A stretch of 64,000 nt of DNA from Escherichia coli (GTDB taxonomy: Bacteria > Pseudomonadota > Gammaproteobacteria > Enterobacterales > Enterobacteriaceae). Shown here in pieces: positions 710-45,629 of the stretch. Both the position numbers and the translations under genes were made by a program. Location of the stretch: NCBI RefSeq assembly GCF_002854065.1, contig NZ_CP024147.1; one strand, written 5' to 3'. The notes beneath the pieces are model-generated. The model was given only the letters and a program-made list of their open reading frames with translations, was not told where the DNA came from and made no database searches. How positions within the stretch are numbered: position 1 is the first letter of the stretch; each line of letters opens with the position of its first letter.

Positions 710-1591
710 TTAGCCACGACGTGTCGCCAGCCAGCAGAGCAGGGAACCGCCGCAGACCATCAGCGCGCCTTGCCAGAACGAGAACGACAGCGGGGCGCTG
801 AGCAGCACGGCTGCAAGCGCTGAGGAAAGTACGGGCGTAAAATACGAACCTACCGCCATAATGGTGACGTTGCCATGCAATATACCGACATTCCATGCAG
901 CATAAGCAAATCCTAAGGTAAATGCCGCAGAGATGAGTTTAATTATGACGGGCATGCTAAATACCATTTCTGGTTGTGGCGTGAGAAAATAGTAAACCCA
1001 CAGACTTGCTCCCGTTAGCAGGACAAAAACGGTAATTCCGTTAAATCCGCGTGCGTATTTATTCGTTACTGTGCAGTAGGCTGCCCAGATAAACGCACCA
1101 ATGAACGCCAGGAAATAACTCAATGGGCTGGTGGTGATATTATTGATGATTTCATCATAATGTAACCCATTGTCACCGCCTAACACCCAGCAGACGCCGA
1201 CGAGGGCTAATAATAATCCTGGTACAATCAGCCAGTTGGTTTTCTGACCATTAAACAGAATGGCAAAGAGAATTGTCAGGCTGGGCCACAGATAGTTCAC
1301 CATACCCACTTCAATCGCCTGATGACGGGTCGCCGCATACCCTAAGGAAAGCGCCAGACAGATTTCATAGCTGACGAATAACAGACTCCCGGCGAGTAAA
1401 TAGCCTTTCGGGATTTGCCGAATACGCGGAAATCCAACCGTGAAGATTAACAGCAGCCCGCTTAATGAATAGATAGCAGCTGCGCCACCGACCGGGCCGA
1501 GCCCCTCACTGACACCGCGAATCAATCCTACCATCGTGCTCCACAGGACGATCGCTATTAGCCCTATGAGCGTTGCTTTTTGTCGTGTCAT
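710..1591 (-). CDS. yddG: Aromatic amino acid / metabolite exporter, DMT (EamA) family
   Basis: 293-aa ORF, strongly hydrophobic with about 10 predicted TM segments; position divergent from fdnG as in K-12. Confidence 0.85.
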   Translation of the reverse strand: MTRQKATLIGLIAIVLWSTMVGLIRGVSEGLGPVGGAAAIYSLSGLLLIFTVGFPRIRQIPKGYLLAGSLLFVSYEICLALSLGYAATRHQAIEVGMVNYLWPSLTILFAILFNGQKTNWLIVPGLLLALVGVCWVLGGDNGLHYDEIINNITTSPLSYFLAFIGAFIWAAYCTVTNKYARGFNGITVFVLLTGASLWVYYFLTPQPEMVFSMPVIIKLISAAFTLGFAYAAWNVGILHGNVTIMAVGSYFTPVLSSALAAVLLSAPLSFSFWQGALMVCGGSLLCWLATRRG

Positions 1592-1822: not shown

Positions 1823-4800
1823 ATGGACGTCAGTCGCAGACAATTTTTTAAAATCTGCGCGGGCGGTATGGCTGGAACAACAGTAGCGGCATTGGGCTTT
1901 GCCCCGAAGCAAGCACTGGCTCAGGCGCGAAACTACAAATTATTACGCGCTAAAGAGATCCGTAACACCTGCACATACTGTTCCGTAGGTTGCGGGCTAT
2001 TGATGTATAGCCTGGGTGATGGCGCGAAAAACGCCAGAGAAGCGATTTATCACATTGAAGGTGACCCGGATCATCCGGTAAGCCGTGGTGCGCTGTGCCC
2101 GAAAGGGGCCGGTTTGCTGGATTACGTCAACAGCGAAAACCGTCTGCGCTACCCGGAATATCGTGCGCCAGGTTCTGACAAATGGCAGCGCATTAGCTGG
2201 GAAGAAGCATTCTCCCGTATTGCGAAGCTGATGAAAGCTGACCGTGACGCTAACTTTATTGAAAAGAACGAGCAGGGTGTAACGGTAAACCGTTGGCTTT
2301 CTACCGGTATGCTGTGTGCCTCCGGTGCCAGCAACGAAACCGGGATGCTGACCCAGAAATTTGCCCGCTCCCTCGGGATGCTGGCGGTAGACAACCAGGC
2401 GCGCGTCTGACACGGACCAACGGTAGCAAGTCTTGCTCCAACATTTGGTCGCGGTGCGATGACCAACCACTGGGTGGATATCAAAAACGCTAACGTCGTG
2501 ATGGTGATGGGCGGTAACGCTGCTGAAGCGCATCCCGTCGGTTTCCGCTGGGCGATGGAAGCGAAAAACAACAACGATGCAACCTTGATCGTTGTCGATC
2601 CCCGTTTTACGCGTACCGCATCTGTGGCGGATATCTACGCGCCTATTCGTTCCGGTACGGACATTACGTTCCTGTCTGGCGTTTTGCGCTACCTGATCGA
2701 AAACAACAAAATCAACGCCGAATACGTTAAGCATTACACCAACGCCAGCCTGCTGGTGCGTGATGATTTTGCTTTCGAAGACGGTCTGTTCAGCGGCTAC
2801 GACGCTGAAAAACGCCAGTACGATAAGTCGTCCTGGAACTATCAGTTCGATGAAAACGGCTATGCAAAACGCGATGAAACACTGACTCATCCGCGCTGTG
2901 TGTGGAACCTGCTGAAAGAGCACGTTTCCCGCTACACGCCGGACGTCGTTGAAAACATCTGCGGTACGCCAAAAGCCGACTTCCTGAAAGTGTGTGAAGT
3001 GCTGGCCTCCACCAGCGCACCGGATCGCACAACCACCTTCCTGTACGCGCTGGGCTGGACGCAGCACACCGTGGGAGCGCAGAACATCCGTACTATGGCG
3101 ATGATCCAGTTGCTGCTCGGTAACATGGGTATGGCCGGTGGCGGCGTGAACGCATTGCGTGGTCACTCCAACATTCAGGGGCTGACTGACTTAGGCCTGC
3201 TCTCTACCAGCCTGCCAGGTTATCTGACGCTGCCGTCAGAAAAACAGGTTGATTTGCAGTCGTATCTGGAAGCGAACACGCCGAAAGCGACGCTGGCTGA
3301 TCAGGTGAACTACTGGAGCAACTATCCGAAGTTCTTCGTTAGCCTGATGAAATCTTTCTATGGCGATGCCGCGCAGAAAGAGAACAACTGGGGCTATGAC
3401 TGGCTGCCGAAGTGGGACCAGACCTACGACGTCATCAAGTATTTCAACATGATGGATGAAGGCAAAGTCACCGGTTATTTCTGCCAGGGCTTTAACCCGG
3501 TTGCGTCCTTCCCGGACAAAAACAAAGTGGTGAGCTGCCTGAGCAAGCTGAAGTACATGGTGGTTATCGATCCGCTGGTGACTGAAACCTCTACCTTCTG
3601 GCAGAACCACGGCGAGTCGAACGATGTCGATCCGGCGTCTATTCAGACTGAAGTATTCCGTCTGCCTTCGACCTGCTTTGCTGAAGAGGATGGTTCTATC
3701 GCTAACTCCGGTCGCTGGTTGCAGTGGCACTGGAAAGGTCAGGACGCGCCGGGCGAAGCGCGTAACGACGGCGAAATTCTGGCGGGTATCTACCATCATC
3801 TGCGCGAGTTGTACCAGGCCGAAGGTGGTAAAGGCGTAGAACCGCTGATGAAGATGAGCTGGAACTACAAGCAGCCGCACGAACCGCAATCTGACGAAGT
3901 AGCTAAAGAGAACAACGGCTATGCGCTGGAAGATCTCTATGATGCTAATGGCGTGCTGATTGCGAAGAAAGGTCAGTTGCTGAGTAGCTTTGCGCATCTG
4001 CGTGATGACGGTACAACCGCATCTTCTTGCTGGATCTACACCGGTAGCTGGACAGAGCAGGGCAACCAGATGGCTAACCGCGATAACTCCGACCCGTCTG
4101 GTCTGGGGAATACGCTGGGATGGGCCTGGGCGTGGCCGCTCAACCGTCGCGTGCTGTACAACCGTGCTTCGGCGGATATCAACGGTAAACCGTGGGATCC
4201 GAAACGGATGCTGATCCAGTGGAACGGCAGCAAGTGGACGGGTAACGATATTCCTGACTTCGGCAATGCCGCACCGGGTACGCCAACCGGGCCGTTTATC
4301 ATGCAGCCGGAAGGGATGGGACGCCTGTTTGCCATCAACAAAATGGCGGAAGGTCCGTTCCCGGAACACTACGAGCCGATTGAAACGCCGCTGGGCACTA
4401 ACCCGCTGCATCCGAACGTGGTGTCTAACCCGGTTGTTCGTCTGTATGAACAAGACGCACTGCGGATGGGTAAAAAAGAGCAGTTCCCGTATGTGGGTAC
4501 GACCTATCGTCTGACCGAGCACTTCCACACCTGGACCAAGCACGCCTTGCTCAACGCAATTGCTCAGCCGGAACAGTTTGTGGAAATCAGCGAAACGCTG
4601 GCGGCGGCGAAAGGCATTAATAATGGCGATCGTGTCACTGTCTCCAGCAAGCGTGGATTTATCCGCGCGGTGGCTGTGGTAACGCGCCGTCTGAAGCCGC
4701 TGAATGTAAACGGTCAGCAGGTTGAAACGGTGGGTATTCCAATCCACTGGGGCTTTGAGGGTGTCGCGCGTAAAGGTTATATCGCTAACACTCTGACGCC

Positions 4801-4870
4801 GAATGTCGGTGATGCAAACTCGCAAACGCCGGAATATAAAGCGTTCTTAGTCAACATCGAGAAGGCGTAA
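1823..4870 (+). CDS. fdnG: Formate dehydrogenase-N alpha subunit (molybdopterin, selenocysteine-containing); in-frame UGA at 2408..2410 read as Sec
   Basis: Two ORF-track pieces (1823..2410 and 2459..4870) are in the same frame, separated only by TGA. The N-terminus has a twin-arginine motif (SRRQFFK) and the Cys cluster CTYCSVGCG. Combined length is 1015 codons plus stop. Confidence 0.95.
2408..2450 (+). other. Selenocysteine UGA codon plus downstream SECIS-type region
   Basis: TGA at 2408..2410 is followed by cacggaccaacggtagcaagtcttgctccaac, which can form a short stem-loop (gcaag/cttgc) in the position expected for a bacterial SECIS. Exact structure not verified. Confidence 0.55.
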
Positions 4871-4882
4871 GGGGGCGAACAG

Positions 4883-5767
4883 ATGGCTATGGAAACGCAG
4901 GACATTATCAAAAGGTCCGCAACTAACTCCATCACGCCGCCTTCTCAGGTGCGTGATTACAAAGCAGAAGTCGCAAAACTTATCGACGTTTCCACCTGTA
5001 TCGGCTGTAAAGCCTGTCAGGTGGCGTGTTCGGAGTGGAACGACATCCGTGATGAAGTGGGGCACTGCGTCGGGGTTTACGATAACCCCGCCGATCTGAG
5101 CGCCAAGTCCTGGACGGTGATGCGCTTTAGCGAAACCGAACAGAACGGCAAGCTGGAGTGGCTGATCCGTAAAGACGGCTGTATGCACTGTGAAGATCCA
5201 GGCTGCCTGAAGGCGTGCCCGTCTGCTGGTGCAATCATTCAGTACGCTAACGGGATTGTCGATTTCCAGTCGGAAAACTGCATCGGCTGTGGTTACTGCA
5301 TTGCCGGGTGTCCGTTTAATATTCCGCGCCTCAACAAAGAGGATAACCGGGTATATAAATGCACGCTCTGCGTCGATCGCGTCAGCGTCGGCCAGGAACC
5401 GGCTTGTGTGAAAACCTGTCCGACCGGGGCTATCCACTTCGGCACCAAGAAGGAGATGCTGGAGCTGGCGGAACAGCGCGTGGCGAAACTGAAAGCGCGT
5501 GGTTACGAACATGCTGGCGTCTACAACCCGGAAGGGGTCGGTGGTACGCACGTTATGTACGTGCTGCATCACGCCGATCAGCCGGAGCTGTATCACGGTC
5601 TGCCGAAAGATCCGAAGATCGACACCTCGGTAAGCCTGTGGAAAGGCGCGTTGAAACCGCTGGCAGCGGCTGGCTTTATTGCCACTTTTGCAGGGTTGAT
5701 TTTCCATTACATCGGTATTGGCCCGAATAAGGAAGTGGACGATGACGAGGAGGATCATCATGAGTAA
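4883..5767 (+). CDS. fdnH: Formate dehydrogenase-N beta subunit (4x [4Fe-4S] ferredoxin-like, C-terminal TM anchor)
   Basis: 294-aa ORF with multiple CxxCxxCxxxCP motifs; starts 13 bp after fdnG stop. Confidence 0.95.
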
Positions 5768-6413
5768 GTCGAAAATGATTGTGCGCACCAAATTTATTGA
5801 TCGCGCCTGTCACTGGACCGTGGTGATTTGCTTCTTCCTGGTGGCGCTGTCCGGGATTTCGTTCTTCTTCCCGACGCTGCAATGGCTGACGCAAACCTTC
5901 GGTACGCCGCAGATGGGACGTATTTTGCACCCATTCTTCGGCATTGCGATTTTCGTCGCACTGATGTTTATGTTTGTGCGTTTTGTGCATCACAACATCC
6001 CGGATAAGAAAGATATTCCGTGGCTGTTGAACATTGTCGAAGTATTAAAAGGCAATGAGCACAAAGTGGCGGATGTCGGTAAGTACAACGCCGGGCAAAA
6101 GATGATGTTCTGGTCGATCATGAGCATGATTTTCGTGCTGTTGGTGACCGGGGTGATTATCTGGCGTCCGTACTTTGCGCAGTACTTCCCGATGCAGGTT
6201 GTCCGTTATAGCCTGCTGATCCACGCGGCTGCCGGTATCATCCTGATCCACGCCATCCTGATCCATATGTATATGGCATTCTGGGTGAAAGGATCGATTA
6301 AAGGGATGATCGAAGGGAATGTGAGCCGTCTCTGGGCGAAGAAACACCATCCGCGCTGGTATCGTGAAATCGAGAAGGCAGAAGCGAAAAAAGAGAGTGA
6401 AGAAGGGATATAA
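5760..6413 (+). CDS. fdnI: Formate dehydrogenase-N gamma subunit (cytochrome b556)
   Basis: Start chosen at ATG 5760 ([19 protein letters not shown]...), giving 217 aa. It overlaps the fdnH stop (ATGAGTAA). Hydrophobic, His-rich heme-binding helices. Confidence 0.9.
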
Positions 6414-6434
6414 TCTCTATTGAACTTTAAGCTG

Positions 6435-6466
6435 AAAATGGCGCTGTAAGAAGCGCCATTTTCATA
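6435..6466 (+). terminator. Rho-independent terminator of fdnGHI
   Basis: aaatggcgc-tgtaagaa-gcgccattt hairpin followed by ttcat T-run, 22 bp after the fdnI stop. Confidence 0.55.
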
Positions 6467-6469
6467 TTG

Positions 6470-6600
6470 TAGACAACGTAGGCTTTGTTCATGCCGGATG
6501 CGGCGTGAACGCCTTATCCGGCCTACAAACCGTTCAAATCCAATAGATTGCAGTGAACATGTAGGCCTGATAAGCGTAGAGCATCAGGCAATGTTGCATT
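6470..6600. repeat. REP/BIME-type extragenic palindromic repeats
   Basis: gccggatgcggcgtgaacgccttatccggcctac and gtaggcctgataagcgtagagcatcaggc are classic REP consensus-like palindromes in inverted orientation. Confidence 0.6.
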
Positions 6601-6640
6601 TGTCATCAGTTTCAAATGGCGCTTTATAAGGTGCCATTTT

Positions 6641-6925
6641 TTATTGCGTAACCAGACGGCGTAATCGCGACACATCCACCGTTTTTTCAGCCTCTGCCAG
6701 ACTCCAGGCGTTTTGCAGATTCAGCCACATTTGCGGCGAACTGCCGATCACCACGGAAAGTTTAATTGCCATTTCTGGCGTCAAAGCTGCTTTTCCGGTC
6801 AGCAATCGGCTTGCCGTTGAGGGCGCAATTTCCATTGCTCTGGCAAACTCGCGCAGGCTGACATTAAGTTCGTCCAGTGATTCCTGAATAATGTCCCCCG
6901 GGCGGGGATGATTGGCCATTTTCAT
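6641..6925 (-). CDS. yddM: HigA-like HTH (XRE-family) antitoxin-type regulator
   Basis: 94-aa ORF; HTH region [34 protein letters not shown]. Start ATG overlaps the stop of the upstream toxin ORF (ATGA). Confidence 0.8.
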
Positions 6926-7203
6926 CAGTGATAGTCCTCGTAATCCAGTATGTATGCATCGCCATTGACGAATTCAAATGTGATTCGCCAGTTGCCCGAG
7001 ACAGATATCGCCCAAATTCCATCGCGATCGCCGCTTAACGGGTGTAGTCGGTAACCGGGCATATCGATATCAGCAAGACAGCTTGCTGCATCAATCACAG
7101 CGAGTCGGTGGCGTAATCGTTTGACTTGCGTCGGTATAACGCCGGAGGTTTTGCCGAGAAGAAACAAGTCACGCAATCCCTTGTGTCTGAAATTCATTAT
7201 CAT
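6925..7203 (-). CDS. HigB-family (RelE/ParE superfamily) mRNA-interferase toxin, intact 92-aa ORF
   Basis: [22 protein letters not shown]...[40 protein letters not shown] matches my recollection of HigB (plasmid Rts1 killer protein) along its whole length, including the C-terminal GDAYIL-YEDYH. AAGGA ribosome-binding site upstream; toxin-first arrangement typical of higBA. Confidence 0.75.
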
Positions 7204-7215
7204 CTCTTCATCCTT

Positions 7216-7232
7216 GTTCCCTCGAAAGGAAC
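7216..7232. promoter_or_regulatory. Palindrome GTTCC-N7-GGAAC just upstream of the toxin ORF; candidate operator
   Basis: gttccctcgaaaggaac perfect 5-bp inverted repeat 13 bp upstream of the toxin start. Confidence 0.35.
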
Positions 7233-7388
7233 ACTATCACTATTGTTCCGTGCAGCGCAACAAATTTCGCTACGTTTTCGCGAATTGTGAGGGGAAAGAT
7301 GGCGGAGGAAAAGAAGAAGAATGAAATTGCGGAAAGCGTCTCGCAAAACAGGCTGCGACCCGAACATGGGAGTCGCAGCAAAGGCCTC

Positions 7389-8399
7389 TTAGCGACGGAA
7401 ATCAATCACCATACGGGCACGGATTTTGCCTTCTTCCATCTCGGTAAAGATGGTGTTGATGTCCGCTAACGGACGCAGGGCGACTTTCGGCACCACTTTG
7501 CCTTCGGCCGCAAACTGGAAGGCTTCGGTTAGATCCTGGCGCGTGCCGACCAGCGAACCGACCACTTCAATACCATCCAGCACAAGGCGTGGGATGTCCA
7601 GGCTCATAGATTCCAGCGGTAGACCGACAGCCACAACACGACCGCCTGCACGGACAGCATCAACTGCCGAGTTAAACGCCGCTTTAGCTACCGCTGTCAC
7701 CACCGCGGCGTGAGCGCCACCGGTTTTATCCTGCACAATTTTGGCGGCGTCTTCGGTGCGTGAGTTAATCGCTAAATCTGCGCCCATTTCGGTTGCCAGT
7801 TTTAACTGCTCATCATTGACATCAATGGCGATCACTTTCGCGTTAAAGACATTCTTCGCGTATTGCAGGGCGAGGTTACCCAGACCGCCAAGACCGTAGA
7901 TAGCAATCCACTGACCGGGACGAATTTTTGACAGTTTAACGGCTTTGTAGGTGGTGACCCCCGCACAGGTAATGCTGCTGGCCGCCGCCGAGTCCAGACC
8001 ATCTGGCACTTTTACCGCGTAATCGGCGACCACGATGCACTCTTCCGCCATCCCGCCATCAACGCTGTATCCGGCATTTTTAACTGAACGGCAGAGCGTT
8101 TCGTTACCACTGTTACAGTATTCGCAATGACCGCATCCTTCGTAAAACCACGCCACGCTGGCACGATCGCCTGGTTTTAATGAAGTAACACCAGGGCCAA
8201 CTTCTGCCACCACACCGATGCCTTCATGGCCCAGAATTACGCCAGTTTTGTCACCAAAATCGCCATTCTTAACATGAAGATCGGTATGACATACACCACA
8301 ACACTCCATTTTCAGCAGGGCTTCGCCATGTTTCAGTGAGCGCAGTGTTTTATCCGTAACGTCAACATGATGATCCTTCGTAACAACTGCAGCCTTCAT
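7389..8399 (-). CDS. adhP: Zn-dependent alcohol dehydrogenase, propanol-preferring
   Basis: Start taken at [11 protein letters not shown] (336 aa). GHEGIGVV and CGHCEYC zinc-ADH motifs. Confidence 0.9.
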
Positions 8400-8532
8400 A
8401 GTTCCTCCTTTTCGGATGATGTTCTGCATAGCAGGTGAGGCAAATGAGATTTATTCGCCACTACCCAGTATGGATGAGATCTGAAAAAGGGAGAGGGAAA
8501 TAGCCCGGTAGCCTTCACTACCGGGCGCAGGC

Positions 8533-10230
8533 TTAGATGGAGGTACGGCGGTAGTCGCGGTATTCGGCTTGCCAGAAATTATCGTCAATGGCTTGTTGCA
8601 AAGCTTCGGCAGACGTTTTCACCGCCACGCCTTGCTGCTGCGCCATTTTGCCAACCGCAAACGCAATTGCGCGGGAGACTTTCTGAATATCTTTTAGTTC
8701 CGGTAGTACCAGACCTTCGCCGTTCAGCACCAATGGTGAATACTGCGCCAGCGTCTCACTTGCCGACATCAGCATCTCATCGGTGATACGTGACGCGCCG
8801 GAAGCAATAACACCCAGCCCGATGCCTGGGAAAATAAAGGCGTTGTTACACTGGGCGATAGGGTAGATTTTATCTTTCCATACCACTGGATTAAACGGGC
8901 TGCCCGTGGCGACCAGCGCGTTACCTTCGGTCCAGGCGATAATGTCCTGCGGTGTGGCTTCCACGCGTGACGTCGGGTTAGACAGTGGCATCACGATCGG
9001 ACGCGGACAGTGTTTATGCATCTCACGGATGATCTCTTCCGTAAACAGCCCGGTCTGTCCTGAGACGCCAATCAGAATATCTGGTTTTACATTGCGCACC
9101 ACATCCAGCAGTGACAACACATCGCTGTCGGTATCCCAGTCACTGAGGTTTTCGCGCTTCTGCACCAGTTTGGTCTGGAAAGGCAGCAGGTTCGGCATCT
9201 TGTCGGTCAGCAAGCCAAAGCGATCGACCATAAAGACTTTCTGCCGCGCCGCTTCCTCGCTTAATCCTTCGCGCTGGGTCTGGGCGATGATCATTTCGGC
9301 AATGCCGCATCCCGCTGAACCTGCGCCAAGGAAGACGATTTTTTTCTCGCTTAACTGACCACCTGCCGCGCGGCTTGCTGCGATCAGGGTGCCGACTGTT
9401 ACCGCCGCAGTGCCCTGAATGTCATCGTTAAAGGAACAAATTTCATTGCGATAGCGGTTAAGTAACGGCATCGCATTTTTTTGTGCGAAGTCTTCAAACT
9501 GCAACAGCACGTCCGGCCAGCGTTGTTTCACAGCCTGGATAAATTCATCAACGAATTCATAGTATTCGTCGTCAGTGATACGCGGATTACGCCAGCCCAT
9601 ATACAGCGGATCGTTAAGCAGCTGTTGGTTGTTGGTGCCGACATCCAGCACCACCGGAAGGGTATACGCCGGGCTGATGCCGCCACAGGCGGTATAGAGC
9701 GACAGTTTACCGATCGGAATGCCCATCCCGCCGATGCCCTGGTCACCAAGCCCCAGAATACGTTCACCGTCAGTCACCACAATCACTTTAATATTATGGT
9801 TCGGCACGTTTTGCAGAATATCGTCCATATTGTGGCGGTTCTGGTAAGAGATAAACACGCCGCGTGAACGGCGGTAGATCTCAGAAAAACGCTCACAGGC
9901 TGCGCCGACGGTTGGGGTATAAATAACAGGCATCATCTCATCAAGATGATTGTTTACCAGACGGTAGAAGAGGGTTTCGTTGGTGTCCTGGATGTTACGC
10001 AGGTAGATGTGTTTGTCGATTTCGGTTTTGAATCCCTGATACTGGATCCATGCTCGTTCCGCTTGTTCTTCGATGGTTTCGACCACTTCCGGCAGTAACC
10101 CCAGCAGGTTGAAGTTACGGCGTTCTTCCATGCTGAAGGCACTGCCTTTATTCAACAACGGAAATTCCAGCAGTACAGGGCCAGCGTAAGGGATATAAAG
10201 CGAACGCTGTTTTTTTGTTTTTGGTTCCAT
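8533..10230 (-). CDS. maeA: NAD-dependent malic enzyme
   Basis: Start taken at [18 protein letters not shown] (565 aa); malic enzyme family motifs present. Confidence 0.9.
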
Positions 10231-15491: not shown

Positions 15492-17042
15492 TTATTTACT
15501 CATGGTATTGATATTGAAGACCTGTTCCAGCATGGGATTGAACACAAAGCCTTTCACCTCTTTGTTCATCGCCAGTTGGTAGTTTTTCTGGAACAGGTAC
15601 ACATAAGCAGCGTCATCAATGACGATTTTCTGTGCCTGCTGGTAGTTCCGGGTACGCTGCGTCTGGTCGGTGGTCGCGAGCGCATTGCGCAGTAACTTAT
15701 CAACCTCACTGTTTTCATAGAACGAGCGGTTACCCGGCAGACCTTTTTTGTCGGACTCAAACCAGTAATTCATAAACATATACGGGTCGGCAAAATCCGG
15801 ACTCCAGTTGCCAATCGCAATGTCGTAATCACCTTTACCCACTCTGTCGCGCATGGTGGCGTTCGCCAGCTTTTCCAGCTTCACATTGATGCCCAGCTTG
15901 TTGAGACTGGATTGTGTCGCTAGAGCAATAGGCTCCCAGTTCGGATCATTATCAGAATAGAGAAACGTCAGGCTGGTGGGTTTGCTCTTCACTTTATCCC
16001 ATTCGGCTTTGGCTTTCGTTTCGTCATGGTTGTATTGCATTGCCGTCGCATCGTAGCCCCACATGCCTTCCGGAATCGGGCCGCGCATTTGTTTTCCGTT
16101 ACCACTCAGAATGCCGTTAACCATGCCCTGATAATCGGTAGACCAGGAAATGGCCCGCCGCAGCTCCGCCTGATTAAGTGGCGCTTTGCTGTTATTCAGA
16201 TACAGATAGGTGACGCGCAGTGACGGATACTCTGCCACATTGACTTTATTTTCCTACTTCAGGGCGTTGAGTTGATCCACCGGCAGCGCATCGGCAATGT
16301 CAATGTCGCCACGGGAGAGCTGCAGGCGACGGGAGGCACTTTCACCGATAATTTTTACCGATACTCGCTTAAAGTTCGGTTTATTGCCGGGGTAATGCGG
16401 ATTTGGCACCAGAACTAATTGCTGACCTTTTTGCCAGCTTTTCAGCATAAATGGTCCGGAACCGGCGGTATTTTGCGCGAGGAAGCCGCGGGCATCATCC
16501 GCCGCATGTTCCTTTAACACCGCCGGATTGATAATGGATGCACCGTCATTCGCCAGCGTGTAGAGGAACGGTGCGAATGGTTGGCTAAGGGTAAACTTCA
16601 CCGTATGTTCGTCGGGAGCATCAATCTTTAAATCTTTGGGAAATGCTTCTGCTGGCCCCTGGCCGATTTTTAGTAGCCGCTCAAAAGAAAGTTTTACTGC
16701 TTCGGCAGTGACAGGTGTGCCATCGGCAAATTTAGCATTATCTTTCAGGGTGAACGTCCACTCTTTTTGATCGTCAGACGCTTTCCAGCTACTTGCCAGA
16801 TCGCCTTCAACGTCGGTTGAGCCTTTATCACCGTCCGTTTTGTACTGAACCAGTCGCTGATAAGACGGGTAGGTCACCGTCCAGTCGTTATTATCTATTG
16901 TTACCGCCGGGTCGAGGGTTTGTGGATCGGCGGCCTTACCAATCACCAGCATATCTTTCGGTACGGCGGCGTGCGCAACCGGGAAAGTTGTGGCAAGGAC
17001 GAGCGCGAGCAATGTGGGACGAAACGATATCGATCTCTTCAT
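15492..17042 (-). pseudogene. ddpA: D,D-dipeptide periplasmic binding protein gene interrupted by a single in-frame TAG (codon 263 of 516)
   Basis: Track ORFs 16254..17180 and 15492..16238 are in the same frame, separated only by the TAG at 16254..16256 (…LDQLNALK * ENKVNVAEYPSLRV…). Signal peptide MKRSISFRPTLLALVLATTFPVAHA at the start; SBP family 5. Confidence 0.8.
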
Positions 17043-37097: not shown

Positions 37098-37544
37098 AAA
37101 TGTTCCTCTTCTTATTGTACTTAATTCCAAAGTAATTTTACGAAGAGAAATAAGTGGATGTAAGTGAAGTTAGTCACATAAAGAGATAGCAGATTTAGCT
37201 AAAAAAAGGGAAATAACAGTCCATAAAGCGTTGACATTACTTTCTGTTCTACTAAGTAATTTCTCGCCGATAAACAACTAATCTATTGATATTTAATAAA
37301 TTATTGTATTTTACTGACAAAATGCCGAATTGAGATCATAAATAATCATGCAATAGGTTATGCAAATGCATAAATATGTGATGAATGTCACTTATTTATT
37401 TCAATAAATATATCGCCTAAAAACAACGCGGGGCAAGGAATGGCTGCCCCATTTAATTCTTACGTAGCGTGTGTGGTTGACTACCCGTTAGCAAATAATC
37501 AAATAGCTAAAGCACTCATCGTGTTGTCCGGTAATGACTCCAAC

Positions 37545-38275: not shown

Positions 38276-39037
38276 TCAGTAAGTTGGCAGCATCACCGTG
38301 TTGTCCGTGTTCATACCGGTGTGCCTTTGACAACGGTACTCCTTAGAAACTCTCTTCGGACTGTTGCCGAAATGTTTGCGGAACGCATAAATAAAATAAG
38401 ATGTACTGGCATAACCACATTGTTCGGCAATTTTATTGACTGAACCTTCTACGCGTATCAAATTTTTTGCGTGCTGCATTCTGGCATCTAAAAGAATCTG
38501 TGAGAATGTCGTTTGCTCTTGCTTAAGTTTTTTCTTCAACAGGCTTTCACTGATGTACAGGCAGTCACAAATATCTTTCAGCTTCCATGGGTGCGCCAGC
38601 TTCATGTTGACAATATTTCTCACTTTCCCGGAAACGGATAGCACACCGTTAGTTAATAGTGTAATGAAACCTTTGCATGCGGCAAAAATAGACAGGCAAG
38701 AAAAAAGCAAAAGTTCTGAAAAATTATGATGATTGCGTTCTTCCGAGTTGAGATAAGCAATCATTTCATTAAGCAATCCAGTCGGTACATTAGAAGCACG
38801 TAAAAACTTCGCAGGAACAGGCACCGTCACTGTCTGGATGTTAGTGCATTGTAGATATTTTTTAATGGTATTTTCATTAAATCCGATTTCTTTAAAATGC
38901 CGCTCATAAGGTTCAAAATGCGTACGAACAGCGTTATCTACCATCAGGATCTCGCCGTCAGAGAAGGCGTAATCTTTATCTAAAATGTTAGCGTTGAAGG
39001 CATGATGAATAAATATAACAGAACAAACGAGCGACAT
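38276..39037 (-). CDS. ydeO: AraC-family acid-resistance regulator whose last 6 codons are replaced by IS1-encoded sequence
   Basis: 253-aa ORF. Reading frame crosses the right TSD into the IS1 end, ending …HTGMNTDNT-VMLPTY*. Skipping IS1 and one TSD copy, the uninterrupted frame would end …DNT-MSALAI*. Confidence 0.8.
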   Translation of the reverse strand: MSLVCSVIFIHHAFNANILDKDYAFSDGEILMVDNAVRTHFEPYERHFKEIGFNENTIKKYLQCTNIQTVTVPVPAKFLRASNVPTGLLNEMIAYLNSEERNHHNFSELLLFSCLSIFAACKGFITLLTNGVLSVSGKVRNIVNMKLAHPWKLKDICDCLYISESLLKKKLKQEQTTFSQILLDARMQHAKNLIRVEGSVNKIAEQCGYASTSYFIYAFRKHFGNSPKRVSKEYRCQRHTGMNTDNTVMLPTY

Positions 39038-39111
39038 TTTATCTCCTTAAAACAATAAAGTTTTTATCGATACTTTTTTAACATTTCATATTTATAATTT
39101 GCTGTTTATTT

Positions 39112-39309
39112 TCAGTCTTGCAAACTATTGATAATGAAATGTGTAAGATCTCTTGCAATGCGACCCATTTCTGAAATGCCCAGCTGATCAATTGCCGAAA
39201 AAATGGCTATCAACGTAAGGGTCAGTAATAAGACAACCACAATTACAAACATGATTTCTTTATAGTTGTCTCTTTGCGTGATTTTGTTTTTCACTGTGGT
39301 CGAATGCAT
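39112..39309 (-). CDS. safA: Small membrane protein, PhoQ-activating connector (65 aa)
   Basis: MHSTTVKNKITQRDNYKEIMFVIVVVLLLTLTLIAIFSAIDQ… with a single TM helix, upstream of ydeO. Confidence 0.8.
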   Translation of the reverse strand: MHSTTVKNKITQRDNYKEIMFVIVVVLLLTLTLIAIFSAIDQLGISEMGRIARDLTHFIINSLQD

Positions 39310-39420
39310 TTCAAATATGTTTATTTAGCGGATAACGTTAAAAATCGTTAATCAGTATGCTTAATATAACAGGCTGGAGAAAAGAGGAAATAGGACTGGT
39401 GCTTCAGTACTGAGCGGAGT

Positions 39421-39438
39421 TTCTTACAGCTGTAGGCA
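39421..39438 (-). promoter_or_regulatory. EvgA-type box upstream of safA-ydeO
   Basis: TTCTTACA-GC-TGTAGGCA resembles the EvgA inverted-repeat consensus TTCYTACA-N2-TGTARGAA, about 110 bp upstream of safA. Confidence 0.5.
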
Positions 39439-39556
39439 GAAGTTTATATCTTATAGTATGTAGTTTAATTTAATCCATGTGAGCAAATTGCGCGATAATA
39501 GTCAATGAGGAATTCTTCTGCTGTGCGGATGACAGCAGAAGAAATGAGAAGAGGCA

Positions 39557-41836
39557 TTAATTTGATGGTTCTAATTCAACCGGAATACTTTTATAGCCAG
39601 GAATGCCACTTAATGGATCGTGGTTATCAAGTGTTAGCATGTGATTCGATTCTGGAAAATAGGTCACCAGTGAGCGGTCAGCCATAGGGTAAATGACCAC
39701 TTTTAATCTATCCATGCGGCGTGAGCTGCGCTTACCGTCTGGCGTAAGCGCAATAAGATTAACTCTTTCGCCGTTTTTTACACGGCAAATTTTAGCTTGT
39801 TTAGCACTCATAAAGACCACATCTCGTTGACCGAATACCCCTCGATAACGATCATCCATACCATAAATCGTCGTGTTGTACTGATCGTGACTGCGTACTG
39901 TCGCCATGACCAGCTTACTGTTAAACGCTGAAGAGGGATCTTCTAACAGCCCTTTGCTGGTAATGAAATTAGCCTTACCTGACGGCGTCATCCAGCGCCT
40001 TTCAGCAGCTGCATTTATCAGGTGAAAACCTCCAGGATGTCGGATGCGCTGGTTATAATCGGCGAACTCTGGCAGCACAGCTTCAATGTCATTGCGAATG
40101 CGATCATAATCTTCCACCAGATACTCCCAGGCTACCACGCTCTGGGGTAGTGCTGCCTGCGCGATTCCCGCGACCACTGCACACTCTGATTTCAGCATTA
40201 CATCGGCGGGTTTTAACACGCCACGCGAGGCATGAATCATCGACATTGAATCCTCAACGGTTACCGCCTGCGCACCGCTTTTTTGCATGTCAATCTCGCT
40301 ACGTCCCAGAACCGGCAGAATATAGCTATGCCGTGCGGTCAGCAGATGAGAGCGGTTAAGCTTAGTGGCTACGTGTACCGCCAGATCTAATTGCGTTAAC
40401 GGTACAGCGCTCGCTTCCCGATCTGGCATTGCCAGTGCAAAGTTGCCCCCCATGCAGATCAATGCTCGAGCCTGCCCTGAACATATTGCTTGCATGCTGG
40501 CAATTGCAGCATGTCCAGGTGCTTGAGGTGGTGTGAAGCCATAGCGCTCACCCAGGCGAGCCAGAAACTCTGCAGACGGTTTCTCGGTGATACCGACGGT
40601 TCGGTCGCCCTGTACATTAGAGTGGCCACGTAGTGGGCAGATACCCGCACCAGGCTTGCCAATGTTACCTTTCATCAACAGCAGATTGACCAGTTGCTGT
40701 ACATTCTGGGTACCATGTTCGTGCTGAGTGATCCCCATTCCGTAACAGATAATGGTGCGTTCGGCAGCGGCATATGCATCAGCCAGTTCGGCGATTTGTG
40801 TCTGACTTAGTCCAGAAATACGTTCGATATCTTTCCACTCGGAATTGAGAACGTCACGGCGTAGCTCGTCAAAGCCGACGGTATGCGTTTGAATAAATTC
40901 GTCATCCAGCAATGAGGGCCGACCTGCGGCACTTGCAGCATCATCGCGCTCAATTAACAGGCGCATCATCCCCTTGAGCAACGCCATATCGCCACCAATG
41001 CGCACGTTGTAGTAGGCACTGGCCAACTGAGTCTCAGAGTTCGTCAGCATTTCAAACGGGTTTTGCGGTGCGGTAAATCGCTCCAGGCCACGTTCCTGTA
41101 GAGGATTGATGGCGATCATTTTCGCTCCCCGTTTCACTAAAGCGCGCAACGAAGTCAGCATGCGAGGGTGGTTTGTACCAGGGTTATGCCCAATGCAAAT
41201 GACTAAATCGCACTTCTCAAAGTCTTCCAGCAACACGGTCCCTTTACCTACACCGATACTCGCTGCCAAACCCACGCTTGTCGGTTCATGGCACATGTTG
41301 GAGCAGTCGGGAAAGTTATTGCTCCCGTATTCACGGGCAAAAAGCTGATAAAGAAAGGCAGCTTCATTGGAAGTGCGGCCCGAAGTATAGAATTCAACCT
41401 GATTGGGATCACTATAGCTTTGAAGGCGTGCGCCAATTTCATTGAAAGCTTGTTGCCAGCTTAATGGCTTGTAACAGTCGCTGACGGCATCATATTTCAA
41501 AGGCTGAGTGAGTCGCCCCGCAGCCTCAAGCTCGTGGTCTCCCCAGGTAAGTAATGATTGAACCGTATTCTCAGCAAAGAAAGAGGCGTTTACCTGCTTA
41601 TCCGTGACTTCCCAGGCGATTGCTTTTGCGCCGTTTTCACAAATGTCGAATGACGCACTGTGCTTAGGATCTGGCCATGCACAACCCGGACAGTCAAAGC
41701 CCTCTGGCTTATTCATGTCAAACATGGCAATAACATCCTGGCGTATATCCATCTGCTTACGTACTGCATTCGCTACGGATTTAACAGCACCCCAACCACC
41801 GGCAGCACCCTGGTAGGATTCAATTTTTTTCTTCAT
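39557..41836 (-). CDS. ydeP: Molybdopterin oxidoreductase (FdhF-like, acid-resistance associated)
   Basis: 759-aa ORF with an N-terminal Cys cluster and molybdopterin-binding domains. Confidence 0.9.
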
Positions 41837-42079
41837 CTACTTATCCTGTGTGGAAATGAATTATTAGGATTTGTAATAGCGATGATGCACAGTACATACA
41901 AAGGGATTATCGCCAACATGGATATATAAGAGTAGGGGACTACTCTCTTTCTATTTTTAATCTATTATCGTTAAACCATAGATTAAATACGATAAGGTAA
42001 GCATCATCTCTCATAGTGTTTAAATTAACATATTTTTCAATATAAAAAATAAGACTCTGGCTTCAATTGTGCGCGGATT

Positions 42080-42097
42080 TTCTTACAGGTGTAGGAT
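42080..42097 (-). promoter_or_regulatory. EvgA-type box upstream of ydeP
   Basis: TTCTTACA-GG-TGTAGGAT, about 245 bp upstream of the ydeP ATG; same half-site pattern as the safA site. Confidence 0.5.
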
Positions 42098-42169
42098 AAT
42101 AGCTTTCACAAAATAATTATCCGCGCAATTTTCGTGAATGGAGCGCATAGACTAAGGTCAAAATCACAA

Positions 42170-43084
42170 TTATTCATAGATAAAAGTGACACCAATGACT
42201 GACTGGACGGTTCCGGCTGAAACTTTGTTCCCTGTTTGTCCATAGGTTGCGCTTAAACCCAGAGGTACTTTGCTTTTATTTACTGTCCCCAGGGAGACAT
42301 TTTCTCCCGTAGCCAGTATTTTTCCATTACGCATCAGAGAGACACCCACTCCCGATGCTTTTGTTGCATCTGGTGCTGTGTTAGCAAACACTTGTTTAGC
42401 ACTGTCAGTGGTAGCACCCGAAAGATAAAATGAGAGCTTTTGTTCACTTGAGCAATATACGCCAAGGGGGATTTCTGCGCTTCCAGGAAAGTCCGGGAGA
42501 TTCACGGTGACATTACGACTATCAACAGTGCAGCCGCCTGTTGGCATAACAACACTGTTATTTGAAATAATATTCCACGTAAAATTACGCGGATTTCCGC
42601 TTCCTAACGTGGCAATTTTATACATATGAATACGGGCAATAACTTCCCCGGCTTTTATGACAACTCCACCGGCCGCCCCGACTGGGGTAATATAGAGTTT
42701 TAACGGTAATGGCATCGGTGTCTTATCACCAATATCCAATACGTTGGTATTTGTCGTCAACGGGAAGGGGTAGGTCACATTATTCCAGTACAGCGATCCT
42801 TTATATGACTGTAGAGAGCCTGCGAAAGCTGAGCCTTGTACCAGGTTTATATGATCAGTGTCGTACCAGCCGCCGTAATCATTCCAGCAACTTATATGCT
42901 GAGACAAGTCTACAACCAGATTCTGGCCCGGCTGTATTACAGGGTCGAGATTAACATAAACAGAGGTTGTACCAGCTCCAATACTTGACCCGCCATCGAC
43001 ATTACAACTGAAGGCAAAAACTTTGCCTGCCATTAATAGAAGATAAATACCGAACAGGACCTTTATACTGATTGTTTTACCCAT
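42170..43084 (-). CDS. ydeQ: FimH-like fimbrial tip adhesin
   Basis: 304-aa ORF with signal peptide, aligning along its length with FimH as I recall it (…[14 protein letters not shown]…, C-terminal …GVTFIYE). Confidence 0.75.
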
Positions 43085-43143
43085 GATATATCCTAAGGTT
43101 AAAAAATTGATTTAAAAAGAAGGCTAAGAAAATCGAATCGATG

Positions 43144-43647
43144 TTATTGCCAGGTGTAGATCACATTGATTAGCGCCTCGATCGTTCCCTGGCTTGCGTT
43201 TCCATTCACCGTGATAGCTCTTGCCTTAAGTGGAAACTGTGCATTACGAGTGATCTCATCAACAATAACCGTTTTGCTATCGCCATTTTTTAACGTCGCA
43301 TCCTGGTCATCCCTCAGCTCTATCTGAATATTTTCGGCAGTACCTTCATTTGTGTAATAACCCGTATTGTCAGTTGAACCTGTCACGATTGCCGTCACTG
43401 CACTTGTTTCAGCCGGACAATCGGTTAATGACAAAGTAATATTGTGCCAGCCAGATGCAGAACCAGGTTGTTGCAGATTGCGCGTATAAAGATCCCCGAG
43501 ATTAACGTTAGCTTCTTTGGTTTGAATAGTGCAGGGTTTAGCGACTACCCGACCATTAACAGTGATAGTGACATCGGCGACCTGGAGAGTTGCTGTGAAT
43601 AACGCGCAAAACGTAGCTAACAGGAACCTCTTGTGAAGTCTTTTCAT
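43144..43647 (-). CDS. ydeR: FimG-like minor fimbrial subunit
   Basis: 167-aa ORF with signal peptide and pilin C-terminus (…NVIYTWQ). Confidence 0.75.
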   Translation of the reverse strand: MKRLHKRFLLATFCALFTATLQVADVTITVNGRVVAKPCTIQTKEANVNLGDLYTRNLQQPGSASGWHNITLSLTDCPAETSAVTAIVTGSTDNTGYYTNEGTAENIQIELRDDQDATLKNGDSKTVIVDEITRNAQFPLKARAITVNGNASQGTIEALINVIYTWQ

Positions 43648-43782
43648 ATCTGACTCTGATTATTGAAATTCAAGGGTAAAGGTTGCCGAAGCCCTCACCA
43701 GTCCCGGATTGACGGACTTCTGAGTTGACTTCAGACGAGCGGAGTAAGGCAAAATATTGTTCTGTTCTGGTACCAGTGGGAT

Positions 43783-44874
43783 CTATAATGTCTGAATACT
43801 GCCGTCTGCCTCTTTTATGGTTACTTGCAGATCACCACCATTGGCCGCAGAGTTGATATCATCAATAGTAAAAGGGCCGGGTGGAACAGTAGTCTGATAA
43901 ACATCGTATCCGTTCTGTTTTACACTCACTTGTGCGGTGCCACGGGCAATACCATGAATCACCGGAGCGAAACCATGTTGGCTATCGGGCAACATCGCTT
44001 CTGTTGAATTTATTTTGAGGCCACGAAAGTTCACACTATCAAAAATATCGCCATCGGTATAACTATCACCTACCGTTAACCGTGAGCGTAAGGGAATAAT
44101 GTCACGTTCAGCCGACGTATTGATATGCTGCCATTTATTGCTGTCAGATGAATTGCTACTCCCACTGTTATAACTCCACGTTGAGTTATCGCGTAGTCGC
44201 CAACTACCAATGTTGATGCCACTCTGTAAATTCAAATATGCATAGTTTGATTTTCCTGCATTATGGTTACTACGATTATTAATAGAATTACCATTAAAAC
44301 TATAGTTTAGAAGCCCTGCATTTATTCCTTCTTCCCACAGATCAGGAGAAACATAGCCGCGAGCCATTCTGCCAACATAAATTTGCGGAACGGAGAGTGA
44401 CAGATGTTGCTGACCAACATCAAACTCAGTTGATGCGTCGACCAAACGATCCTGAAGTGGTGTGCATGCGCTGTTGTCCGGCACATGTTTTTCTGCTGAA
44501 TGTTCCTTATTGTCTAATAACGCAGATTTTTTTATGCCAAGACTGACAAGAAGATCTGTACTCAGGCATGGGATGAGATCTGCATTATTATCATCTGCAA
44601 TAAAAGTAATATCCCGACTAGTCATAAATTCGTCGTTCAAATAAATGTCGATCCGATATGTACCAGGTGGTGCCTCGCGTCCCTTAGTAAAGGCGGATAA
44701 ATCGACAGATTCAGCAAGATCATTGCTTAAAAACCGTGGATTAAAATAATACTCTGCGTCAACGGGAAATACCGCAGTTGCTAAGCCAAGGGCAATGGTA
44801 AGCCGTACAAAGCGAGGCAGTAGTAACACCTGATGCAAACGATATGCCTTAAATGCGGCACGAAAGGCTGTCAT
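43783..44874 (-). pseudogene. ydeT: Fimbrial usher, N-terminal ~363-codon fragment only
   Basis: Matches my recollection of the FimD N-terminal and plug region (…YFNPRFL…GINAGLLNYSF…RLRDNSTWSYN…GDLQVTIKEADGS) and then stops. The ~135 bp before ydeR encode only a pilin-like C-terminal tail (…ASATFTLEFQ*) in the same frame. The gene symbol is tentative. Confidence 0.7.
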
Positions 44875-44915
44875 TATTAATTCCGATTGAGTTTATTATT
44901 AATTAGGTCACTGGC

Positions 44916-45629
44916 TTACTGCATGGTTGCCTTAATACGCGGAGTTAATGCGCCGTAATCATTGATCGTCTGAAAACTGATATCCCCGGTGGCAGCATGC
45001 GGGATATCCACCGATACTTCACCTTTTGGCGGCACCATGGTGTTTGGGAGATTGCTATTTCCTGCTTTCATATTTGTTACGGTAATGAAGTAGGGCGTTG
45101 GATTAATAAGAGTGAGTTTGCTACCGCTGCGACGAAACCGAAGCATTGCAGGCGCTTCTTCAGGTGCCATTGCCAGGTTCGTGGGGCGATAAAACATTTT
45201 TATGCGGCTAATAATTGCCAGCTGTAATGTATTCTCATTCTTCTGGTCTTTTTCCATAGCAGGAATAGCTTTAACATTCACCCAGAACAGGCTTTCACGG
45301 TCGCCTGGTAACTGATGATTAGTGGCGTTGATTATCCGCAGCGTATTCTCTTTTTTACCTTGCATGGAAAAAAGCGGTGGGGTAATGACAAACTGGGTGT
45401 CTTTTTGGTCACCTGCATTTTCTATCTGAAGTGTTGATGGAAAGAGGGCGTGCTCATTTGCACGCGGTTTACCAGCTTGAGTCTTCAACGCTGGGAAGAT
45501 GCGGCAAACGGCAAATCTGCATACCAGCCAGCCTATATCCGGCATGCACAGGCCAATTATGAAAGAGGAGAGGCTTAAGTTCTGGAACCCTGAACGAATA
45601 ACGACTACCGGAAAATCACTTCGTATCAC
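44916..45629 (-). pseudogene. PapD/FimC-like periplasmic chaperone remnant with degenerate N-terminus
   Basis: C-terminal two-thirds align well with my recollection of FimC (…FVITPPLFSMQGKKENTLRI…DRESLFWVNVKAIP…INDYGALTP). The N-terminal ~60 residues lack a recognizable signal peptide. No major-subunit gene upstream: only ~120 bp to hipA. Confidence 0.6.

Follow-up and report, generated by a model that had tools for sequence, protein, structure and literature searches.

Selenocysteine recoding at UGA codon 196 of Escherichia coli fdnG and the SECIS hairpin that follows it

fdnG is one of three classic E. coli selenoprotein genes, and the ligation of molybdenum by Sec196 of its product, the binding of SelB and the roles of SelA, SelC and SelD are established knowledge. 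In the K-12 genome, fdoG carries its TGA at codon 196 and fdhF at codon 140. For K-12 fdnG itself, the 1991 papers of Berg, Li, Heider and Stewart and of Berg, Baron and Stewart (J Biol Chem 266:22380, 22386), so far as they are relayed in PMC13188914, established that the UGA encodes Sec and that the stem-loop is essential; in the same relayed account, Berg et al. 1991 excluded selenium-free FdnG, synthesis independent of selB and selC, and read-through independent of the minihelix. The determinants reported for recognition by SelB are a minihelix 11 nt past the UGA, a bulged U17 and the apical-loop bases G23 and U24 (PMC8659212), and a set of general constraints on bacterial SECIS elements (bSECIS) has also been published (PMC13188914).

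Here we describe fdnG in a 64,000-nucleotide stretch of E. coli DNA (the window, to whose first letter all positions refer). We consider it almost certain that the UGA at codon 196 of this gene is recoded co-translationally as selenocysteine by way of a SECIS and SelB.

The fdnG reading frame and its UGA codon

Translation of 1823..4870 on the plus strand gives 1016 codons, 1015 of them including Sec196 and the last a terminal TAA (4868..4870). The frame holds a single internal stop, the TGA of codon 196 at window positions 2408..2410, and translation thus reproduced what the original prediction had claimed, a 1015-codon fdnG with one in-frame TGA at that codon. The same prediction held that ordinary ORF callers split the gene, and the mechanical ORF list does break it, giving one ORF of 195 aa (1823..2410) and another of 803 aa (2459..4870). 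Over the 4.8 kb surrounding the TGA, the window shows 100% identity with E. coli strain CUWW06, where RefSeq annotates a single CDS of 3048 nt, 'formate dehydrogenase-N subunit alpha', that reads through the TGA.

When the product was compared with the PDB, with X replacing the stop, residues 1-1015 aligned with 1kqf_A (2401 bits), whose title is 'formate dehydrogenase, nitrate-inducible, major subunit' and whose residue 196 is non-standard (X). The displayed part of this alignment contains just two differences, F342 versus L and A666 versus S, and the best PDB matches after 1kqf_A are 'selenocysteine-containing' Desulfovibrio FdhA structures. An alignment of FdnG with Sec-containing formate dehydrogenases had been proposed as a check on the reading of the UGA as Sec; the alignment with 1kqf_A runs end to end with the X at 196, and this, together with the single RefSeq CDS, upholds that reading. 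The PDB match and the RefSeq annotation settle the identity of the gene, which by its sequence is FdnG of E. coli formate dehydrogenase-N. The coordinates of the features of the locus are collected in Table 1.

Table 1. Positions in the window of fdnG, the elements within it and its operon partners
Feature	Coordinates	Strand	Basis
fdnG, catalytic alpha subunit of formate dehydrogenase-N (Mo-bisPGD/[4Fe-4S])	1823..4870	+	Translation, RefSeq, PDB match
Tat (twin-arginine) signal peptide, MDVSRRQFFK...ALA, periplasmic export	1823..1921	+	S-R-R-x-F-F-K motif in translation
Bacterial SECIS (Rfam SECIS_3 model span)	2405..2463	+	cmscan; hairpin proper about 2411/2413..2453
UGA codon 196, selenocysteine (Mo ligand Sec196)	2408..2410	+	Sole internal stop; aligns with X196 of 1KQF
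Upper minihelix, predicted SelB-binding part, GGUAGCAAGUCUUGCUCC	2422..2439	+	Numbered from U of UGA; covariation
fdnH, Fe-S beta subunit, operon with fdnG	4883..5767	+	ORF list; RefSeq annotation of identical sequence
fdnI, cytochrome b gamma subunit, operon with fdnG	5760..6413	+	RefSeq annotation of identical sequence

The Tat motif SRRQFFK can be read from the translation at the N-terminus of FdnG, and its predicted cleavage position is one that we take from general knowledge. In the RefSeq annotation of CUWW06, fdnGHI is flanked by yddG and the yddM toxin-antitoxin pair, with adhP also a neighbour, an arrangement as in E. coli. Over its length, the window agrees with CUWW06 as far as position 37530, save for 12 scattered mismatches. 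From 37531 on, the position-by-position comparison fails in a way consistent with an insertion, a deletion or a divergent segment, and identity of the window with CUWW06 throughout was rejected for that reason.

At least 80% of the 4.8-kb fdnG query is present in 5407 of 5426 complete E. coli genomes, and the TGA at codon 196 is kept in essentially all E. coli genomes. Its counterparts are X196 in 1KQF, TGA196 in fdoG, TGA140 in fdhF and Cys196 (TGT) in a plasmid paralogue. Homologues were sought more widely with the DNA pattern R-V-UGA-H-G-P-x-V, one genome being taken per species, which yielded at least 120 loci; among the loci listed, 117, from many phyla, have open frames on either side of the TGA. 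Were the TGA a true stop, produced by a nonsense mutation or a sequencing error, fdnG would be a pseudogene left in fragments of 195 and 803 aa, and the mechanical ORF list does break the frame at exactly this codon. Against such an origin stand the near-universal presence of the TGA at this codon in E. coli genomes, its occurrence at codon 196 of fdoG as well, its recurrence in the 117 open-frame homologues among the matches listed, its alignment with the catalytic Sec of the 1KQF structure, and the conserved, covarying SECIS that lies directly after it (see below). On the conservation and the 1KQF structure we rejected a pseudogene or sequencing error, the probability of which we regard as negligible.

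The hairpin 3′ of the UGA

A search with cmscan placed the Rfam family SECIS_3 (RF01989) at 2405..2463, covering model positions 1-59 of 59, with 84.3 bits (E 1.4e-18) against a gathering score of 63 bits, a result that is not independent evidence because these very enterobacterial genes probably went into building the family. When the whole 64 kb window was scanned at gathering thresholds, SECIS_3 was the sole Rfam family to reach threshold.

A potential stem-loop had been predicted at 2408-2450. A SECIS hairpin does lie directly 3′ of the TGA, but its end falls at about 2453, some 3 nt further on than predicted. Folding of 2408..2455 (48 nt), which had been suggested as a check, formed the SECIS hairpin with its conserved apical G-U and bulged U, paired across 2413..2453 at a minimum free energy (MFE) of -13.8 kcal/mol; the MFE fold of the 59 nt from 2405 to 2463 has -17.4 kcal/mol. 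The folding energy of the hairpin is not significant relative to chance (z = -1.44), with 21 of 200 dinucleotide shuffles being equally stable. A z-score of this size can neither support nor refute a SECIS, and folding energy was discarded as a test of the hairpin; because stability alone is unremarkable, support for the SECIS comes from the covariance model, the covariation and the conservation at synonymous sites.

The lower stem of the Rfam consensus pairs poorly on the E. coli sequence, forming 7 of its 9 pairs at about -3.3 kcal/mol, and the lower stem of the E. coli MFE fold is one register off it. In view of the poor pairing and the shifted MFE fold, the consensus register was not adopted for E. 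coli. A shift of one register fits the report that the lower stem is non-essential and that only the upper minihelix is essential (PMC8659212).

Within the minihelix, the bulged U17 is at 2424 and the apical-loop G23-U24 at 2430-2431, with G23-U24-C25-U26 spanning 2430-2433. fdnG thus has the E. coli-type SelB determinants, U17 and G23-U24 standing at the fdhF offsets. The published bSECIS constraints (PMC13188914) allow the apical loop 3-9 nt, the upper stem 4-16 bp and the distance from UGA to loop 16-37 nt; they place a G at the first or second position of the loop, as a rule with G or U after it (pattern N1-G-[G/U]-N-N2), and ask for an MFE of -7.5 kcal/mol or lower. In fdnG, the apical loop has 3-5 nt (A22-G23-U24-C25-U26, in which A22 and U26 are able to pair) and begins with G23 followed by U24; the upper stem has 7 bp (5 + 2, broken by the bulged U17); and 19 nt (positions 4-22) lie between the UGA and G23. 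The -13.8 kcal/mol of 2408..2455 is below the -7.5 kcal/mol limit, which discriminates poorly because the fdnG fold is not better than that of shuffled sequence. Judged on sequence, then, the fdnG hairpin is a bona fide bacterial SECIS.

Covariation, synonymous sites and Cys-type homologues

Among the matches listed from the pattern search, 66 distinct FdnG-type 59-mers could be aligned without gaps. They come from Gamma-, Beta- and Alphaproteobacteria, Acidobacteria, Desulfovibrionales, Actinomycetota and Bacillota, and pairs were counted on the Rfam structure over all 66 distinct sequences. In the upper helix (2422..2439), 97.2% of cells are paired and compensatory double changes occur in four of the seven pairs; in the lower helix, 84.7% of cells are paired, with compensatory double changes in none of the nine, which leaves the lower stem weakly supported. 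The covariation score of the whole structure was reached by 0 of 500 shuffles, and slid registers all came out far lower, at 28-50% paired versus 90% for the whole structure.

The covarying bases are third codon positions, at which Ala GCN codons pair with Leu CUN codons. The wobble base U24 is invariant in the 66 sequences, in which its codon is AGU (40 sequences), GGU (24) or GCU (2), and the two Gly codons near it have all four third bases in use; G23 is present in 64 of the 66 homologues. The search pattern fixed alignment columns 1-2, 4-8, 10-11, 13-14 and 19-20, U17 being among them, so invariance in these columns, including that of U17, is at least partly a matter of ascertainment. We conclude that RNA-level selection acts on the upper minihelix of fdnG within the coding region.

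Homologues with Cys at the position of Sec serve as natural controls. One such protein is encoded, with TGT, by plasmid pN96-1 of E. coli as well as by plasmid pla1 of Escherichia sp. KS167_9B, and keeps 5 of the 7 upper-helix pairs; the copies on Providencia rettgeri pVCSW10.1 and Chelatococcus pCO-6, both with TGC, keep 3 and 4 of the 7, respectively. G23 is lost in two of these three distinct Cys-type homologues. The pN96-1 copy scores 44.7 bits with SECIS_3, below threshold, and over the SECIS segment its synonymous identity to fdnG (7/17) lies at the background level. The Sec-type plasmid copies of Enterobacter, Ensifer and Roseomonas retain all 7 of the 7 pairs. Going by these predicted pairings, the hairpin is lost in Cys-type homologues and kept in Sec-type ones. 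Homologues with Cys had been named beforehand as a finding that would count against the SECIS; they do exist, but they are without the hairpin, and the Sec homologues retain it.

The longest exact match between fdnG and fdoG, 71 nt at 2405..2475, spans precisely the UGA and the SECIS. Over codons 195-217, all 21 of the 21 degenerate codons that encode the same residue in both genes are identical, versus a gene-wide background of 58.4% (P ~1.3e-5 before correction for position); the next longest run of identical codons in the gene has a length of 12. The 59-mer of fdnG recurs without a change in Yersinia aldovae and on a plasmid of Enterobacter hormaechei.

These comparisons also bear on how the UGA is read. 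Decoding might in principle proceed without Sec, by a near-cognate tRNA-Trp or tRNA-Cys, with the conservation downstream of the codon reflecting only constraint on the amino acids, or else conversion between the paralogues fdnG and fdoG. High conservation is indeed seen in the peptide HGPTVASLAPTFGRGAMTN, and conversion could in principle produce the 71-nt identity, but the conservation and the covariation sit at synonymous third-codon positions, the pairing is gone from Cys homologues that encode almost the same peptide, and the SelB determinants are at their canonical offsets. The identity of the 59-mer in Y. aldovae and on the Enterobacter plasmid points moreover to purifying selection and not to recent conversion, making conversion unlikely as the sole cause of the fdnG/fdoG identity. 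We therefore regard read-through without Sec as highly improbable, and favour recoding as selenocysteine.

Ordinary purifying selection on the hairpin, which SelB would bind and which overlaps a conserved active-site peptide, accounts fully for the 71-nt identity. That the identity, shared also with Yersinia and Enterobacter, might reflect recurrent gene conversion that matches both genes to one SelB, or a second function such as translational pausing or selenium-dependent regulation, seems to us unlikely.

Mechanism and relation to known systems

For the recoding of UGA196 we envisage the following course. The mRNA directly 3′ of the UGA, within the reading frame, would fold into the bacterial SECIS hairpin, and SelB, a specialised elongation factor, would bind the upper minihelix (2422..2439) together with GTP and Sec-tRNASec. 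The latter would be the product of selC, charged with Ser and converted by SelA with selenophosphate from SelD. From its tether ~11 nt 3′ of the codon in the A site, SelB would bring Sec-tRNASec to the UGA, competing there with release factor 2, and translation would run on to the TAA at 4868..4870 to give a 1015-residue, Tat-exported catalytic subunit in which Sec196 would ligate molybdenum.

Delivery of Sec-tRNASec by SelB, and the need of the selC tRNA for SelA and SelD in its conversion from Ser-tRNASec, have been described (PMC13188914), and the dependence of expression on selABCD that the original prediction asserted is established knowledge on the same authority. The sel genes are absent from the 64-kb window; selAB is found in 5425, selD in 5425 and selC in 5424 of the 5426 complete E. 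coli genomes.

The gene, the codon, the RNA element, the mechanism and the structure are all already known, and no new biology is involved. The practical import lies in annotation: since a naive ORF caller cuts fdnG into products of 195 aa and 803 aa, the UGA needs to be flagged as selenocysteine, as RefSeq already does correctly. The recoding in fdnG is handled by the RefSeq PGAP annotation, and the split is limited to naive ORF callers. The comparative results also illustrate selection at the RNA level in coding DNA: the covariation is synonymous, Cys paralogues have lost the hairpin, and fdnG and fdoG share an identical segment.

A comparison with the SECIS elements of fdoG and fdhF had likewise been suggested, and it turned up the same SECIS_3 score in fdoG and the same determinant offsets in fdhF. 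Like fdnG, fdoG (formate dehydrogenase-O) has its TGA at codon 196, and SECIS_3 gives 84.3 bits in both genes alike. Unlike this shared element, the two genes as wholes agree in just 75% of their nucleotides and 77% of their amino acids, and fdoG differs further in its separate locus (fdoGHI-fdhE) and its different regulation.

With fdhF (formate dehydrogenase-H), the reference bacterial SECIS, fdnG has in common the first eight bases, UGACACGG, as well as G15, G16, the bulged U17 and G23-U24-C25-U26 at the same offsets, in a minihelix that starts 11 nt past the UGA. The fdhF element belongs to SECIS_2 (RF01988), with 87.1 bits, whereas that of fdnG belongs to the sister family SECIS_3, and scores across the families are below threshold (35.8 for fdhF on SECIS_3 and 28.1 for fdoG on SECIS_2). 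The stem sequences differ, the minihelix having 18 nt in fdnG and 17 in fdhF, and so do the loops, which in fdhF have 4 nt (GGUC) and in fdnG either 3 nt (GUC) closed by A22-U26 or, if that pair is open, 5 nt (AGUCU). The FdhF protein, unlike FdnG, is a cytoplasmic protein of 715 aa with Sec140.

Closest of all is K-12 fdnG with its Sec196 and SECIS (1KQF/1KQG; RF01989; Berg et al. 1991): gene and element are the same as in the locus described here, and the differences are confined to strain-level polymorphisms outside the SECIS (F342 versus L and A666 versus S relative to 1KQF).

Conservation of the UGA–SECIS segment

The longest exact identity between fdnG and its paralogue fdoG is 71 nt (window 2405..2475, against around 5171..5241 on the minus strand of L002, the K-12 fdoG locus), and the extent of this run matches the UGA plus SECIS exactly, while the overall identity of the two genes is 75%. 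The 59-mer of the SECIS within this run recurs unchanged in Yersinia aldovae and on an Enterobacter hormaechei plasmid.

An fdnG homologue on a plasmid of Paracoccus marcusii (see table) carries CGA in place of the TGA expected for selenocysteine (peptide ...ARRRHGPTV...). The SECIS hairpin is intact despite the CGA, with 7/7 base pairs of the upper helix retained. The local sequence reads CGTCGTCGACAC rather than the usual CGTGTCTGACAC, and this difference looks like a compensating indel pair. The likely origin of the CGA is either a mistake in assembly or polishing or a mutation that arose very recently.

Coordinates of features in the window and at comparison loci
Feature	Source	Position	Strand	Basis
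yddM, HigA-family antitoxin + RelE/ParE-family toxin	window	6641..7203	-	CUWW06 annotation of identical sequence
ddpA, D,D-dipeptide ABC transporter substrate-binding protein	window	15492..17042	-	
fdnG homologue	L135, Paracoccus marcusii pKGP2, NZ_CP143307.1	around 293.1 kb		
fdnGHI-like operon, plasmid-borne	L004, E. coli pN96-1	5520..10116		
fdnGHI-like operon, plasmid-borne	L132, Escherichia sp. KS167_9B pla1, IncFIA/FIB conjugative			
naRNA4 (CssrE) array	L003, K-12	804..1432		Rfam

Other features of the window and of K-12

A small toxin-antitoxin pair lies immediately downstream of fdnI. Codon 263 of ddpA is an in-frame TAG (about 16254..16256), and a near-identical RefSeq genome labels the gene a pseudogene ('internal stop').

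Compared position by position with E. coli strain CUWW06, the window is identical through 37530 except for 12 scattered mismatches, and agreement is lost from 37531 on, a break that an indel or a stretch of divergent sequence could explain. The top matches to 39001..64000 are patchy (98.6%, in 5-8 pieces) and hold ydeP, fimbrial usher genes, lsrK, an ECSE_1600-family autotransporter and a Tn3-like TnAs1 transposase; this is therefore a mosaic, mobile-element-rich region. At the corresponding place CUWW06 has an IS1 and two tandem filamentous (Zot/pII-type) prophage copies, which the window lacks.

Outside the window, six REP-type naRNA4 matches in tandem adjoin fdhF in K-12, downstream of fdhF/yjcO; they have no relation to the selenocysteine finding in fdnG.

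A plasmid-borne cysteine-type operon

The fdnG segment was matched at 25 places on E. coli plasmids. On pN96-1 and KS167_9B pla1, which have the protein WP_000395613.1 in common, an fdnGHI-like operon is bordered by remnants of IS66, IS21 and IS3, and the SECIS is absent from its fdnG homologue. The operon may encode a selenium-independent, mobile formate dehydrogenase. Its FdnG-like protein is ~70% identical to chromosomal FdnG and has cysteine (TGT) at position 196, where the chromosomal enzyme has selenocysteine.
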